DNA of 64,000 bases from the IMG/VR virus record IMGVR_UViG_3300025732_000017. One strand, written 5' to 3'. This stretch comes from a virus. Shown piece by piece: positions 1,752 through 41,586 of the stretch (positions within the stretch are counted from its first letter, which is position 1; the number at the start of each line of letters is the position of its first letter). The notes beneath the pieces were generated by a model. The model searched no databases. It was not told the DNA's origin and saw only the letters and a program-made list of their open reading frames with translations. A program made the translations under genes and the position numbers.

Positions 1752-1781
1752 AAGAGGGGAGCAAAAACTCCCCTCTTTTTT
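1752..1781 (+). terminator. Rho-independent terminator after gp32
   Basis: Stem AAGAGGGGAG / CTCCCCTCTT, loop CAAAAA, then a T run; lies between convergent genes. Confidence 0.9.
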
Positions 1782-3735
1782 ATGACAGCGCACCAGCTGC
1801 TATCATGTTTTGCATTCTAACAAGAGAACTTTCTTCATTTCTAATACTTGCAACGGGTCCTTGTTGAGCACCAGCACCAATCGAAGGTGCATTATTTGTT
1901 GTGTTGTTTATTATTGTTGGTGCACCGCCGGCTTGAGTTTCGTCTCTTGCGCCCGCTAATTGTGCTTCCATCGCACCAAGAACTGGACCTGTCTGACGAG
2001 ATTGCGGTACTGGTAGACCACTAGGTGGCATTTTATTAAGATCAAAATCCGGTGGTAAGTTCTGCATGTGTTGTGGTCTATATGGACCAGATCCTGTTGA
2101 AGGTTGAATCGATCCATCAGAAGATGTGTTTGGTTGTATTGGAACCATTTTTCCTGTATTCGGATCCATGACCGGAGAAACGGGTAATTGTGGTTGTGAT
2201 GGTAAAGTTATTTTTCCAAAATTATTTGCAGGACCAACAAACGGTTGTGATTGTGCCTGTGCTTGTTGTAAGTTATTTGTTCTTTTATTTTTAGGAACTA
2301 ATGGATCATATAATTCCGTTTCAAGACCTTCAAACTTTTTTGTATCGAGTTTTTTATTTGGATCTAATATTGCATCTGCCCTATCATTTGCTCTTTTTAC
2401 TAATCCACCTAATACTTTTCCATCGGCTGTGTGCATCGAACCTCTAACAGTTTCAGCAAGATCGCCGTAGTCGCCTGTTGTTTGACCTTTTTTTAATCCT
2501 TCAACTATCTTTGGATTTTTATTGAATATTGCAGGTCCATTAAACCCTAGGTCTTTCATCACATCTTGTACATGTGGTGGTAGTTTGTCTAGATCAATTC
2601 CTTTATTTTTCAGAGTTTTTCTTGTCAAGTCATCGAGTTTTGATCTATCACTTTGATATAATTTTTCGGCATCTTCTTTCGTTATTCCCTTGTTTACATC
2701 CAACTCTGTTCCATCAGGTAATTTTATTTTACCTGTTCTTAGTTCTTCATCTGTTAATCTGTGTCCATATCCTATATGATCACTGCCTCTTCTTCCACCA
2801 ACTCTATCTGCTCTATTTGTTGGTTCAACTGGTGGTGTGGGTTGAGATGGCTGTATTGGCTGAACGGGCTGTGGTGGAATTACTGCACTTCCGCCAGGCA
2901 CGGCTGGTTGTATAGGAATTGTGGGTTGAGCGGATTTTGGCATTTCACGAACACCTAGTCCGCCAGATAGTTCTATTGGAACTTTTGTAAAGTTAGACTT
3001 ATCAAGATAAGTTGCTCCAGTACTAGGATCGTGTTTCCAGCCCGGAGGTAGTTTTGATGGATCAATTTTTGATGTTTGATTTTCAATTATTCCAATATTC
3101 TTAGCAATTTCGGCTAGATCTTTTGCCGAATCTGATGACTTTGAGAACTTTACTGCTATTGTATTTTGAGATTCTAATTTTTCTCTTATTGCTTCTAGTT
3201 CTTGAACGGCAGGATTCATAAAATCATTTAAGCCTTCTACAAGATTCATTGCTGATGAATTTTGTGCCCCAGGAATCATTGCTGAAGTTGGTCTACCACC
3301 AGGAATAGCTGCACTCGCACCACCACCATGGCCTCCAGGAAGAAGTCTTCTCATTCCGCCAAAGAGTGTTTCTAATATTCCACCCCCGCCACCTTCTTCA
3401 ACCGCTGTTTTTATTTCCTTTAGTGTCTTTGACATTTCTGTCAAGATACCTTTTATTTCACCCAATTGTCTATCTACATTTTTAACATGTGCATTTGTTG
3501 CATTTTGTCTAAATGCTTCAACTTCTCTAGAGGTTCCTGTTGGACTTGAACTTGATGTTTTTGTCTGTCTATCTGGATATAACGGCTCAAATTCAGAGCC
3601 AAAAAGTTTTGTGTATGCACTTCTAACTTTTCTTGTTATTGCATAGTCAATTTTAGCAGCGGTACTTCCTTCTGCGAAGGGGCTTTTACCCTGAAATGAT
3701 ACTCTGCGCGTGTTTGTATTGCGTCTTCTTGCCAT
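1780..3735 (-). CDS. Baseplate hub / tape-measure-like virion protein with an internal GH24 lysozyme-fold domain
   Basis: 651 aa. IGYGH..IT.EDAE.L..DLGFNG..GKVLGGLVKR matches the phage lysozyme pattern; Pro/Gln-rich linkers; directly downstream of gp26/gp51-like genes. Confidence 0.6.
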   Translation of the reverse strand: MARRRNTNTRRVSFQGKSPFAEGSTAAKIDYAITRKVRSAYTKLFGSEFEPLYPDRQTKTSSSSPTGTSREVEAFRQNATNAHVKNVDRQLGEIKGILTEMSKTLKEIKTAVEEGGGGGILETLFGGMRRLLPGGHGGGASAAIPGGRPTSAMIPGAQNSSAMNLVEGLNDFMNPAVQELEAIREKLESQNTIAVKFSKSSDSAKDLAEIAKNIGIIENQTSKIDPSKLPPGWKHDPSTGATYLDKSNFTKVPIELSGGLGVREMPKSAQPTIPIQPAVPGGSAVIPPQPVQPIQPSQPTPPVEPTNRADRVGGRRGSDHIGYGHRLTDEELRTGKIKLPDGTELDVNKGITKEDAEKLYQSDRSKLDDLTRKTLKNKGIDLDKLPPHVQDVMKDLGFNGPAIFNKNPKIVEGLKKGQTTGDYGDLAETVRGSMHTADGKVLGGLVKRANDRADAILDPNKKLDTKKFEGLETELYDPLVPKNKRTNNLQQAQAQSQPFVGPANNFGKITLPSQPQLPVSPVMDPNTGKMVPIQPNTSSDGSIQPSTGSGPYRPQHMQNLPPDFDLNKMPPSGLPVPQSRQTGPVLGAMEAQLAGARDETQAGGAPTIINNTTNNAPSIGAGAQQGPVASIRNEESSLVRMQNMIAAGALS

Positions 3736-3767: not shown

Positions 3768-3911
3768 TTACTTTTTTCTTGCTGCGTTTAAGTCTTTCAA
3801 TCTTTGATTTTCATTTTCAATATACTGTATCAATAATACTGTGTATATGTCTCTTTCCCAAGGTATCATATTTTCAAGTTCTGTTAAACTATACTTATGA
3901 TGCTGCATCAT
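3768..3911 (-). CDS. gp51: gp51-like baseplate hub assembly protein (47 aa from ATG; possibly expressed as a frameshift extension of gp26)
   Basis: Not in the ORF track. Manual translation MMQHHKYSLTELENMIPWERDIYTVLLIQYIENENQRLKDLNAARKK* is the typical gp51-like signature of T4-like phages. Confidence 0.8.
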   Translation of the reverse strand: MMQHHKYSLTELENMIPWERDIYTVLLIQYIENENQRLKDLNAARKK

Positions 3912-3958
3912 TGAAAAATTTGTTTGAAAATAGTTCGCTAGCGTTTCATGACCAAGGC

Positions 3959-4690
3959 TTATTCGAAAAAACTTGTTAGGCCCTCCAATGGTATCTTGTG
4001 ATCAAAACCACATTTTTCACACTTATGTTCTATGATAGACTTTACATATGGAATTGTATTAAAAAAGTTTTGAATCTTATCAAAACTTGCTTTAGGAATA
4101 CTTTCAACGTATTCTAGAATTTCTTCTTTTTTCATTTCTTTTAAGTAGTATATGTTATCTTTGTCAAAAATATAGTCAATGCTATTAATAATTGATTCCA
4201 AAGCATCTTCAACATTTCTTTTCTTATTACTTTTTAATCCTATTTCACCAAAACTTAATGTTGGATATTTCATTACAACACCTATATCCTTTGTAAAGAA
4301 TATTGTTTTTTCATGATTTGGATTTTTTTCAACTGTAGCAGTTAGAATGTCGTGTTCAAATTCCATCAAATGACCACACTCTTCATCTTCAATCATATTT
4401 TTGCATTTAAAAGATAGTGAAACTTTTTCACTAATTGATCTTGCTCTTAGATGAATGAAAAAATACTCGATGTCAAATGTTGACATTTCATCTACTTTGA
4501 AATCTTTGTCGATAATACAATTAGAAACTATTTGTTTTACCGCATCTACGATATCCTTTTCTTTACCAGACTCTAGTGCTATTAGCAAAATTTTTTGTTC
4601 TTTGACTAAAAATGGTCTAAATTTTACTTTTTTACCAGAAGAAGGTATTTCAAAATCATAAGTTGGCAAATCAATTTTGGGTAATTTCAT
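3959..4690 (-). CDS. gp26: gp26-like baseplate hub assembly protein
   Basis: LPKIDLPTYDFEIPSSGKKVKFRPFLVKEQKILL and FDIEYFFIHLRARSISE motifs, Cys pairs, ends GLTSFFE. Confidence 0.88.
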   Translation of the reverse strand: MKLPKIDLPTYDFEIPSSGKKVKFRPFLVKEQKILLIALESGKEKDIVDAVKQIVSNCIIDKDFKVDEMSTFDIEYFFIHLRARSISEKVSLSFKCKNMIEDEECGHLMEFEHDILTATVEKNPNHEKTIFFTKDIGVVMKYPTLSFGEIGLKSNKKRNVEDALESIINSIDYIFDKDNIYYLKEMKKEEILEYVESIPKASFDKIQNFFNTIPYVKSIIEHKCEKCGFDHKIPLEGLTSFFE

Positions 4691-4724: not shown

Positions 4725-5555
4725 TCATTGATTCGGTTGTTGTCCAGGAAGAGACGGATTAACCGGAAATCCTTCCAATTCCAGCAAACCCTGTTCTCTG
4801 GTTTGTGGTGGAAGAGTTTCAGCAGTTTCCGGAGTAATTGGAGGACCTTGTCTTTGTGCTTCAGATTTTCTAGGAACCTCTTGCTGTGTTGTTGCGTATA
4901 GTATGGGTTCTTCGGTTTTGCACTCGCACATGTTCGTGTATCTAAAATACTTATATGTGAACGTTACAGAAACTCTAGCAACTTCCTCACTACCCCAAGT
5001 CATTGAAACTGGACTAACTACAATAGGATATGCTTCTTCAAAATCCATCATATATGATGCTACGTCAGAGGTATCATAACAAATTATATTGATTGGTGCA
5101 ACATAATCATTTCTATATCTAAAGTTATGATACACTTGATTTTGTGGAGTGCTAGATCTTGATGGATAAGAATTTATATAATTCATCCAATTTTCAAAAG
5201 TGACTTTTTCGTCCATTCCCGTAAAAGGCGGACTGGATATACTTCTTCCGCTTATTCCCAGTCCGTCATCTCTAACTTGTAATCTTCCTGATTTATTTGA
5301 TGAACATAAAAAAGTTAAGGTGATTTCACTAAAAAAAGATTGTGTTGGATACTTTATTATTGGACCATATGTTCTATGATCAAACGTGTTAAATGATCTT
5401 CCGGGTAAATCTACAGATTCGCATCTTAGAGTTAGATCTGCTAATGTAGGACAGCACTTAGGTATGCTGGGAAAAAAAACCTTGAACCTACTTTGTCTTT
5501 GTAGACTATGATATTTGTTTATGCTTGAAATGAAAGTTTGTACTGATGAACTCAT
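4725..5555 (-). CDS. gp54: Baseplate tail-tube initiator (gp54-like, tube fold)
   Basis: LRCESVDLPGRSF, TYGP..KYP, FENWM, EAYP..V....W..EEVARVSVTFTY motifs; Pro-rich C-terminal extension. Confidence 0.7.
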   Translation of the reverse strand: MSSSVQTFISSINKYHSLQRQSRFKVFFPSIPKCCPTLADLTLRCESVDLPGRSFNTFDHRTYGPIIKYPTQSFFSEITLTFLCSSNKSGRLQVRDDGLGISGRSISSPPFTGMDEKVTFENWMNYINSYPSRSSTPQNQVYHNFRYRNDYVAPINIICYDTSDVASYMMDFEEAYPIVVSPVSMTWGSEEVARVSVTFTYKYFRYTNMCECKTEEPILYATTQQEVPRKSEAQRQGPPITPETAETLPPQTREQGLLELEGFPVNPSLPGQQPNQ

Positions 5556-6133
5556 TGATATTTCTTTCTAGAATCTGAAAAGACTTTTTGTTTTCTTGCG
5601 CCTATAAAACTTTCAACTGGCAAGAATATTGCAATATCCCATTCATTTGCATTTATACGCAAGAATTGTGATCTTATGTGATGTGAAAGATATCTTTTCA
5701 AGCATGGACGAAATGCTTCTGTGCTAGATAAGCCCTTCAACATTTGATATGACGCGGCTATTCTTGTCTTATCATCATATTTGTCGTTTGTAGAAAATTC
5801 GCTCAAAGCATCAAGTAATTTTGCACGAGGAACTGGGGCCAAATAGTGTAGATTTAATCCCAAAAATCCATCCGAGTACGTTTCAATGGGTATTACAAGA
5901 GGAAATAAATCATAAAATGGTAAATTATCCTTTAGTTTGGGATTATATACAAAAAAGTACATTCCCCCTAAATCAAAGGTTGTTTGTTTGCGTTTCAAAT
6001 CACGCATGAGCGTATTTGGTCTGAGACCGGTAAGATCTCTAACTTTATTTTTGATCCATTGTCTAGCCTTGTTTGAACTTACAGCTAGATTCTGTTTCTG
6101 TAATTCTTTTTGTAGTCTATCTATTAGTGCCAT
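5552..6133 (-). CDS. gp2: DNA end protector protein gp2
   Basis: GGMYFFVYNPK.KDNLPFYDLFPLV, FLGLNLHYL, KRYL..HIRS motifs. Start reassigned to MALIDRL (ATG 6133). Confidence 0.85.
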   Translation of the reverse strand: MALIDRLQKELQKQNLAVSSNKARQWIKNKVRDLTGLRPNTLMRDLKRKQTTFDLGGMYFFVYNPKLKDNLPFYDLFPLVIPIETYSDGFLGLNLHYLAPVPRAKLLDALSEFSTNDKYDDKTRIAASYQMLKGLSSTEAFRPCLKRYLSHHIRSQFLRINANEWDIAIFLPVESFIGARKQKVFSDSRKKYQ

Positions 6134-6141
6134 GAATATAT

Positions 6142-6579
6142 TTATTTGATTCCTAGATCCTCTTCCGTAAGCACTTTGAACTGCCAATTCCGATCAAGAC
6201 AGTATTCTTCAGCCGCTTTCCACTTTGCTTCGTTTACTCCCCATGTGACAACTTCGGATATGTATTTTTGAGTAATACGCGATCTTTTCTTTGGTGGTGC
6301 TGACTCTTTTTTGGGCTTTATTTCCCAAACCATCTCGCGAACTTTACCTTCTTTATCGCGTACTTTGACATAAAAATCTGGAAAATAACGATGTACTTTT
6401 CGATCCACTGGCGAGAAATAAGGTATCACGATTTCTTCAGAAGACCATTGCATCACGGACGGGTTTACGTCAAGAAAGACCATGACACGACGTTCCCAAA
6501 GACTACGATATATTATCCGTGTAGGGTCCCCGCGATATTTACTACTATTTGTTGGAATGAAACGGCCTTTGTACGACAT
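6142..6579 (-). CDS. gp4: Head completion nuclease gp4
   Basis: SYKGRF.P.N..KYRGDPT.IIYRSLWE, WSSEE..IPY, HRYFPDF, EIKP, NEAKW.AA motifs. Start reassigned to ATG 6579. Confidence 0.9.
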   Translation of the reverse strand: MSYKGRFIPTNSSKYRGDPTRIIYRSLWERRVMVFLDVNPSVMQWSSEEIVIPYFSPVDRKVHRYFPDFYVKVRDKEGKVREMVWEIKPKKESAPPKKRSRITQKYISEVVTWGVNEAKWKAAEEYCLDRNWQFKVLTEEDLGIK

Positions 6580-39616: not shown

Positions 39617-40840
39617 ATGGCAATTAATTTTCCTAATTCACCAATAGCAGGAGAGTATTTTGTAACTGGTAATTTGACATACCAGTATACAGGAACAGTT
39701 TGGGTATCAGTAAATACAAAGACAAACAATGCTTTCAATCAAGCAAATACTGCATTTGATAAAGCAAATACTGCAAATGTAATTGCGTCGGCTGCTTTTA
39801 ATAAAGCGAATGGTGCTGCTCAACTATCATTTACTACTATAGTTGCAAATGGCACATCACTTGTAGCTGATTCTAACGCAGACACATTGACAATTAGAAC
39901 GACAGGAAACGTTGCCATAACTGCCGACGCATCTGGTGACAATCTAACATTTGATTTGACAACTACTGGTGTTACTGCTACCACATATGGTAATGCAACA
40001 ATAATACCTGTTATTACAGTTGATTCACGCGGTCGTTTAACTTCTGTAAGCAATGTTACAGTTGTTAGTTCTACACCAACAAATTCAATAGTATACGTTT
40101 CTGATACAGCACCAAGTGGTGTTTCAAATGGTACTCTGTGGTGGAATTCAAATAGTGCTACCCTATACATAAACTATGGAGATGGAGATACAACGCAATG
40201 GATCTCAACATCTGAAGGTGCTTTTGGTACTATAACAATTAGTTCAAATGCAATTGCTGTTGCCGCATTTGATAAAGCAAATGCCGCGGTATTGAAAACA
40301 GGAAATACCATGACAGGAAATCTTGTCATGTCGAGTGCAAACATTGCTTTTGCTACGTCAGTCAATAATGGTATATACTGGAATGGCACTTCGTTTATTC
40401 ATTCACCAGAGGCAAATGTATTAATATTTGGAACTTCTGCAGTTGAAGATTTTCGTATTGATTCTAACGGAAATTTAAATGTTGCAGTTGGTTTGTATGT
40501 TACAGGTACAGTTAGTGATTCAAAAGCAAATGTTTTATCACAAACATTGTCTGATAGCGCATCAATTTCATGGGATGCATCTTTAGGTAGAATAGCAATA
40601 GTAACATTGGGTGGCGCAAGAACGCTTGCAAACGCAACCAATATTCGTGTGGGCACATACGTTCTTAAAGTACAACAAAATACTACTGGTAATAGCACTT
40701 TGACTTTTGGAACACAATATAAGTTTACTGCAAACGTAACACCAACTTTGACATCGGCTGCAAATAGTGTAGATATATTTTCGTTTGTTTGTGATGGAAC
40801 AAATATGTATGGCGCAATGATACCAGATGTTAGATCATAA
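39617..40840 (+). CDS. Fibre/adaptor protein
   Basis: MAINFP N-terminus, SDTAPS..NGTLWWNS module, KTGNTMTG module, C-terminal adaptor domain ending YGAMIPDVRS. Confidence 0.8.
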   Translation: MAINFPNSPIAGEYFVTGNLTYQYTGTVWVSVNTKTNNAFNQANTAFDKANTANVIASAAFNKANGAAQLSFTTIVANGTSLVADSNADTLTIRTTGNVAITADASGDNLTFDLTTTGVTATTYGNATIIPVITVDSRGRLTSVSNVTVVSSTPTNSIVYVSDTAPSGVSNGTLWWNSNSATLYINYGDGDTTQWISTSEGAFGTITISSNAIAVAAFDKANAAVLKTGNTMTGNLVMSSANIAFATSVNNGIYWNGTSFIHSPEANVLIFGTSAVEDFRIDSNGNLNVAVGLYVTGTVSDSKANVLSQTLSDSASISWDASLGRIAIVTLGGARTLANATNIRVGTYVLKVQQNTTGNSTLTFGTQYKFTANVTPTLTSAANSVDIFSFVCDGTNMYGAMIPDVRS

Positions 40841-40851
40841 TAGGTAAAAAA

Positions 40852-41586
40852 ATGGCAATCAATTTTCCCAATTCACCAAACGTCGGAGATGTTTTTACAG
40901 TCAATGATTTGCAATATGAGTGGAATGGATCCGCATGGATTTCAATCAATTTAGTTCTACAATCCTCATTTGATAAAGCAAACTCAGCTAATATTTCTGC
41001 TGATGCTGCTGTAAAAAAAGTTGGCAATACCATGACAGGAAATCTTGTCATGTCAGGTGCCAATATTGCATTTGTTGATGCAACTAATTCTGGAATATAT
41101 TGGAGTGGAACTGGTTCTTCTTTTATACATTCACCATTAGCAAATACGTTAGTATTTGGTACAGCATTTGCTGAAGATATGAGATTAGATTCTAGTGGTA
41201 GACTTGGTATTGGAGTATCTTCTCCTCGCTCAAAATTTGACATCATAGGCGCTGCTGCTGGCGGCGTAACTACATTGACTGATGGCGCAACGATTACACC
41301 AGACTTTGCATCAAATAACAGCTTTACAGTAACATTGGGCGGTAATAGAACATTGGCAAATGCAACAAATACGACTATAGGTCAATCTGGTGTGATATAT
41401 GTTGCACAAGATGGCACTGGTAGTAGAACATTATCGTTTGGGCTAGCATACAAGTTTGTGGATAATTCAGCACCAACATTGACAACGACTGCAAATGCTG
41501 TTGATGCGATCATATATTCTGTGCGTACAACGAATTCATATGTATGTCAAGTTCTATTGAATGTTGGTAATATAAATGATACTTGA
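40852..41586 (+). CDS. Fibre/adaptor protein
   Basis: MAINFP N-terminus, K.GNTMTG module, adaptor domain TLTDGATI..VTLGGNRTLAN..QDGTGSRTL with a divergent C-terminus. Confidence 0.8.
   Translation: MAINFPNSPNVGDVFTVNDLQYEWNGSAWISINLVLQSSFDKANSANISADAAVKKVGNTMTGNLVMSGANIAFVDATNSGIYWSGTGSSFIHSPLANTLVFGTAFAEDMRLDSSGRLGIGVSSPRSKFDIIGAAAGGVTTLTDGATITPDFASNNSFTVTLGGNRTLANATNTTIGQSGVIYVAQDGTGSRTLSFGLAYKFVDNSAPTLTTTANAVDAIIYSVRTTNSYVCQVLLNVGNINDT

Follow-up and report, generated by a model that had tools for sequence, protein, structure and literature searches.

Atkins et al. (2016, PMC5009743) describe the G-T frameshift of the tail assembly chaperones as a conserved trait of long-tailed phages, 'except T4'. 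In lambda the slip occurs near the end of the first ORF and gives a short and an extended product, gpG and gpGT (Xu, Hendrix, Duda 2004; PMC5009743). In T4, gp26 (208 aa) and gp51 (249 aa) are hub assembly chaperones, and gp51 is required for assembly and absent from the virion (Leiman et al. 2010, PMC3004832). The gp51 of cyanophages and marine vibriophages lacks ~200 N-terminal residues (Sullivan et al. 2010). A word search of the literature for a paper directly on a gp26/gp51 frameshift found none; the closest work surfaced via the references of the PRFect paper. According to PMC10885494 and PMC12846349, T4-like chaperone genes were identified by Vladimirov, Gautam and Davidson (Virology 2022), a study that PMC12846349 cites for poly-T -1 signals in T4-like TAC-N genes, and that the PRFect paper cites for some T4-like phages having a short gene plus a fused long gene that replaces the frameshift. 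As represented in these citing papers, that system shares with the one described here the PF12322 family, the scheme of one short and one long form, and a poly-T -1 signal at the TAC-N gene's 3' end. To the extent that the citing papers convey it, the principle was therefore published in 2022, and our locus is one more example, accompanied by statistics on its signal, and no new idea.

The locus lies in a window of 64,000 nucleotides (the whole stretch of DNA that was analysed), whose source virus record comprises 196,948 bp and is rated 100% complete. A first-pass annotation had proposed that the gp26-like and gp51-like ORFs of this window form one G/GT-like chaperone pair joined by a -1 frameshift. 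We consider such an arrangement probable, at roughly 85%: as judged by comparative sequence analysis, gp26 and the short 'gp51' ORF appear to be one recoded tail or hub assembly chaperone gene, from which a -1 slip would produce forms of 243 and 307 aa. The relevant features, all on the minus strand, are the following.

5552-6187, minus strand: gp2, DNA end protector, a neighbour on the same strand
4725..5555, minus strand: upstream neighbour, a tube-fold protein of 276 aa of the gp54 'baseplate-tail tube initiator' type (PF23849 Phage_TTP_2, 2.9e-6; phrog_45 'tail tube', 3.6e-26)
3959..4690, minus strand: gp26-like ORF of 243 aa, TAA stop at 3961-3959 included, the predicted short chaperone form (TAC-N) (PF12322 T4_baseplate, 8.2e-56, profile positions 2-219 of 219; phrog_150 'baseplate hub', 3.2e-61)
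4002..4004, minus strand: TGA closing the -1 frame upstream of the slip site
3982..3986, minus strand: Shine-Dalgarno-like GGAGG, 10 nt upstream of the heptamer, a candidate dnaX-type 5' frameshift stimulator
3965..3971, minus strand: slippery heptamer T TTT TTC, in X XXY YYZ phase in the gp26 frame
3768..3965, minus strand: -1 frame extension of 65 codons plus a TAA stop at 3770-3768, the 'gp51-like' C-terminal part of the predicted long form (TAC-NC)
3909..3911, minus strand: earliest in-frame ATG in the -1 ORF, which database annotations would take as its start
1780..3735, minus strand: downstream neighbour, a 651-aa protein in the position of the tape-measure gene in relatives

The gp26-like ORF ends with ...ACA AGT TTT TTC GAA TAA, so that the heptamer stands before the stop with the sequence and phase that the first-pass annotation had described. 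From the slip the -1 frame reads RISLGHETLANYFQTNFSMMQHH..., and, again as claimed, it is closed just upstream by the TGA at 4004-4002 and is open from there through gp51 to the TAA at 3770-3768. With C3965 read twice, the conceptual fusion has 242 + 65 = 307 aa and a predicted junction peptide ...LTSFFRISLGHETL...; the earlier forecast had been ~305 aa. The ATG at 3911-3909 lies 18 codons past the slip, and the sequence upstream of it (caaacaaatttttca) contains no purine-rich Shine-Dalgarno, in agreement with the earlier reading. The extension matches phrog_634 'baseplate hub assembly catalyst' (2e-27) over residues 2-63, a match that takes in the 18 residues preceding that ATG, and it also matches the tail of phrog_150. 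Exactly one PF12322 gene is present in the whole ~197-kb virus record, and since this genome is complete there is no separate full-length gp51.

A caveat attached to the original proposal was that T runs are common in this AT-rich genome. The window does have 37.7% G+C and 133 T6/A6 run starts, and it could be argued on these grounds that the T run is nothing more than an FF dipeptide as encoded in an AT-rich genome, and that the open -1 frame is accidental. We screened the 69 window ORFs of at least 100 aa for an in-phase heptamer in the last six codons combined with a -1 extension of at least 50 codons: two ORFs were retrieved, gp26 and an antisense shadow ORF, and the combination seen in gp26 is more than chance. 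The shadow ORF (40830-41246, minus strand; 138 aa), with its in-phase TTTTTTA and long -1 extension, was considered as a second frameshift and rejected because it is antisense to plus-strand genes. On the plus strand, positions 39617-41586 contain two adjoining genes of 407 and 244 aa with a common N-terminus (MAINFPNSP), which look like fibre-type paralogues.

Conservation of the slip signal was studied in 83 loci, namely the window itself, P-SSM2, Sf-CH1b and 80 IMG/VR loci that had been retrieved with gp26; gp26 identity across the related loci was 34-69%. By tblastn the extension lies in the +2 (= -1) frame in all 83 loci, with the onset of homology at extension residue 1 or 2 in 82 of them and at residue 6 in one. 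An in-phase T TTT TTN is likewise found in 83/83 loci (TTTTTTC in 71, TTTTTTT in 6, TTTTTTA in 6): the six T's, two wobble positions included, are invariant, while the flanking codons vary freely, and a 0-frame stop follows 0-2 codons after the heptamer in every locus. Entropy is 0 at the six T's, as compared with 1.3-2.0 at neighbouring wobble positions. T TTT TTY with a -1 extension is also present in HTVC008M, Vibrio phage Va3 (KVP40-like), Caulobacter phage Cr30 and Aeromonas phage AS-szw.

The synonymous sites of the heptamer were compared, in the 70 unique loci, with the same codon types elsewhere in gp26. In 70/70 loci the third base of the codon ahead of the heptamer (AAT, AGT or GAT) is T, versus 75% T in those codon families elsewhere in gp26, and the P-site Phe codon is TTT in 70/70, versus 69% elsewhere. 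NNT TTT thus occurs in 70/70 loci, when ~52% would be expected per locus; FF dipeptides elsewhere in gp26 are mostly TTCTTT, and in five loci the second F is replaced by L (TTA) with the T run still kept. The naive probability of the invariant wobble T's is ~1e-20, a value that is overstated because the loci are related to one another and hence are not independent; the entropy contrast with the adjacent wobble positions is clear nonetheless. As far as aligned sequences can tell, the slip signal is real and very well conserved. An accidental T run next to an accidentally open frame is contradicted by the constant offset, by the excess of NNT TTT, by the different coding of FF elsewhere and by the shadow-ORF nature of the only comparable case in the window; we regard it as extremely improbable, and by these comparisons a chance origin of the signal is excluded. 

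The extension is conserved as protein from the slip onwards. Its consensus from the first -1 codon is Ri.lghesL.NYykTNF.lMQHHKY, in which conservation covers the 18 codons that precede the first ATG, inclusive of the NY..TNF residues that the first-pass annotation had named as shared upstream of the Met. Mean codon-position entropy over the 19 codons after the slip, in the -1 frame, is 0.81/0.50/1.35, to be compared with 1.09/0.53/1.30 in the coding region before the slip: both codon periodicity and protein conservation of the extension begin at the slip site, upstream of the Met. The three properties that had been named in advance for homologues (a constant -1 offset, a conserved slippery heptamer and protein conservation upstream of the gp51 Met) were thus all found, the heptamer being kept even at synonymous positions. 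Depending on the locus, the first ATG is at codon 2, 3, 9, 18, 19 or 32 after the slip, and therefore no start is conserved.

We combined 62 unique conceptual fusions in a fusion HMM. On this model T4-type gp26 covers positions 11-246, ending at the junction, and T4-type gp51 aligns at 162-290 as one domain, across the junction, the extension matching its C-terminus. These results bear on the possibility that there are two independent genes, with the small ORF starting by itself at ATG 3911 or nearby and the fusion never being made. An ATG is indeed present at 3911, and public records list gp26 together with a separate small 'baseplate hub assembly catalyst'; this arrangement, however, leaves the lack of a conserved start and of a Shine-Dalgarno at ATG 3911 to be explained, along with the conserved residues and codon periodicity upstream of the ATG, a phrog_634 match that starts from residue 2, the colinearity of T4 gp51 across the junction and the retention of the heptamer at synonymous sites. 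We consider two independent genes very unlikely.

The preferred reading, a single gene recoded by a -1 slip, can be set against the organization of T4, in which gp26 and gp51 both belong to PF12322, as does gp26 here. Genes 26 and 51 stand apart and run divergently in the T4-type phage Mizar and in the T4-type Acinetobacter phage Meroveus; gp26 FF is encoded as TTC TTT in Mizar and Meroveus has F-V, hence there is no heptamer in either. The T4 type (T4, Meroveus) has two separate divergent genes without a heptamer, whereas here there is one gene with a -1 extension. If the recoding is real, T4-like phages would no longer be a true exception to the tail-chaperone frameshift, and T4 would use two genes to make this same protein pair. 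The slip would also explain why 'gp51' has ~20% of the T4 length in cyanophages, pelagiphages and KVP40-like phages (Sullivan 2010): the ORF would be short because the ~200 residues come from gp26 via the slip.

In the proposed mechanism, most ribosomes would stop at the TAA and release the 243-aa short form, the putative equivalent of T4 gp26 (TAC-N). A minority would move back by one base at T TTT TTC as tRNA-Phe changes its pairing from UUU UUC to UUU UUU; these ribosomes would then read CGA ATA AGC... and add 65 residues, yielding the 307-aa long form, the putative equivalent of T4 gp51 (TAC-NC). The analogy with lambda G/GT suggests that the chaperone body would be common to the two forms and that the extension would link it to another tail part. 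The slipping of the ribosomes, the ratio of the two forms, their partners and a stimulating role of GGAGG are all elements that we infer for this scheme.

Of the 70 unique loci, 36 have GGAGG at the 10-nt spacing and a further 24 have GAGG or GAAGG. The Glu codon at this site is GAG in 47/70 loci (67%), versus 13% GAG elsewhere in these genes. The motif overlaps E-G codons, and because the E-G residues are themselves conserved, this evidence is only suggestive of GGAGG being a 5' frameshift stimulator. As in E. coli dnaX, the heptamer is preceded by an internal Shine-Dalgarno-like sequence; unlike in dnaX, no 3' stem-loop was found at the locus, its heptamer is U-rich and not A AAA AAG, and the frameshift would yield the longer product. 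The spacing between Shine-Dalgarno and heptamer in dnaX is 10 nt, the same as for GGAGG here. A 5' Shine-Dalgarno is a major feature of the dnaX frameshift and of those of many IS elements, and U-rich heptamers are far less shift-prone in E. coli than A AAA AAG (Atkins et al. 2016, PMC5009743). A 3' stimulatory RNA structure was found neither in a single-sequence fold of the window junction (z = 0.23) nor with RNAalifold on 36 diverse junctions (0 pairs). It is conceivable that the conserved internal GGAGG, acting as in dnaX, and a stop 0-2 codons past the heptamer drive the frameshift without any 3' RNA structure; we advance this tentatively, as a possibility with the odds somewhat against it. 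If it were true, and absent from the 2022 paper, it would represent a distinct, minimal type of signal for chaperone frameshifts.

The same 307-aa protein could arise by transcriptional slippage, if RNA polymerase added one U on the T6 run in some transcripts. The slip site is a homopolymer, and the product would be identical (...SFFRIS...), so that conservation and protein mass spectrometry cannot separate a polymerase slip from a ribosome slip. Bacterial cases of this type, on the other hand, are documented on runs of ~9 A or T (Atkins 2016, PMC5009743), versus 6-7 here; position 7 of the heptamer is C in 60/70 loci, while a longer T run would favour the polymerase; and a GGAGG at dnaX-like spacing would be a ribosome-specific stimulator. 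On balance we judge slippage of the polymerase unlikely, and retain slippage of the ribosome as the preferred reading.

Structural modelling is consistent with a chaperone function of gp26. An AF2 model of gp26 was obtained from 45 sequences (pLDDT 83.6, pTM 0.78) and compared with 48,161 chains in a VIA-align wide search. The three best chains for residues 1-94 of the model were 3fgx_B (Z 7.8), 2ob9_B (Z 7.0; HK97 tail assembly chaperone) and 3klu_A (Z 6.8; YqbN), with 85-86 residues aligned in each; because these Z values are below 8, the matches constitute fold-level support and no proof of homology. The next-best chains had Z 4.8 (an uncharacterised Vibrio PICI-like-element ORF) and then 4.0. 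The three best entries, 3fgx, 2ob9 and 3klu, are the three phage tail assembly chaperones of solved structure (PMC9603447), and at the level of fold the model thus supports a tail-assembly-chaperone fold for the gp26 N-domain. No Phage_TAC family of Pfam matched gp26 at E <= 0.1, PF12322 alone passing the cut-off; a PDB sequence search with gp26 gave no meaningful match, and Foldseek of the model against the PDB returned only weak rows, with 2ob9 at E ~1. Taken together, the colinearity of T4-type gp51 with the fusion, the end of T4-type gp26 at the junction and the chaperone fold argue in favour of the G/GT-like pair that the first-pass annotation had envisaged.

The comparison with lambda extends to other characters. 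In chaperones of the lambda type the tape measure is bound by the body and the tube protein by the extension, and both forms are absent from the virion. As with the lambda-type chaperones, the slip would take place near the end of the first ORF and yield one short and one extended product, a tube-fold gene is located upstream, and the N-domain appears to have the TAC fold of HK97 gp13, YqbN and Rbstp2171. Compared with those chaperones, gp26 here is larger and has in addition an alpha/beta domain and a C-terminal part rich in Cys, its heptamer is T-rich, and it has no Pfam TAC family match. The slippery heptamer of phage P2 E/E' is T-rich too.

The gene order on the minus strand is gp2, tube-fold protein, gp26 with its extension, and 651-aa protein. 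The tube-chaperone-tape-measure order that had been put forward holds for its first part: a tube-fold gene is upstream, and HTVC008M, Va3 and AS-szw have in this place a gene annotated as tail tube or tube initiator. It does not extend with the same clarity to the 651-aa gene, whose core has a lysozyme fold and which displays no similarity to annotated tape measures. This protein has a weak Phage_lysozyme match at 320-450, and its Atlas model contains a lysozyme fold at ~305-465, the remainder being of low confidence; the flanks are disordered and rich in P, Q and G, with a Gly run near residue 115. No blastp similarity was found to the annotated tape measures of HTVC008M and Cr30, and the identification of the 651-aa ORF as a tape measure was not borne out by Pfam, PHROGs, NCBIfam, blastp against these tape measures and against neighbouring proteins in relatives, or the protein atlas, which gave a lysozyme fold only. 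In HTVC008M and Cr30 the annotated tape measure comes after one small ORF downstream of the chaperone locus. By position and size the 651-aa protein fits a gp29-like protein; it could be a tape measure or a hub protein with a wall-degrading domain.

The practical value of these results lies in annotation. The extension is carried by 547 phage records; among the matches listed, its match usually begins at residue 1, overlapping the annotated end of gp26, and it is either annotated as a separate small gene or missed. A joined CDS is present in 0/9 relative loci whose annotation was inspected. The extension is unannotated in Sf-CH1b and AS-szw, and also in S-CAM4 and S-CAM1 by the features listed under the match.

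Some variation of the junction was noticed among the loci. In 39/83 loci the T run follows an AAT codon, and a second in-phase heptamer (A AAT TTT) thereby overlaps the first; the window, with AGT at this point, lacks it. In Stenotrophomonas phage IME-SM1 (KR560069.1; locus 3200-3345) the junction is GAT TTT TCG GCT GA, with 5 T's versus 6 in relatives; the annotated gp26 thereby extends to 280 aa, and the gp51-like extension comes to lie in the +1 frame. One extra T would restore a canonical D-F-F-G-stop, and the five-T junction reflects a sequencing error in the homopolymer or else a genuine +1 variant. In Serratia phage phiMAM1 (Ackermannviridae; locus 3225-3415) the extension is in the -1 frame (E 1e-6), and the site, CAG GTT TTC, lacks a canonical X XXY YYZ heptamer and is similar to the GTTTTT motif reported for other myovirus TAC genes (PMC12846349).
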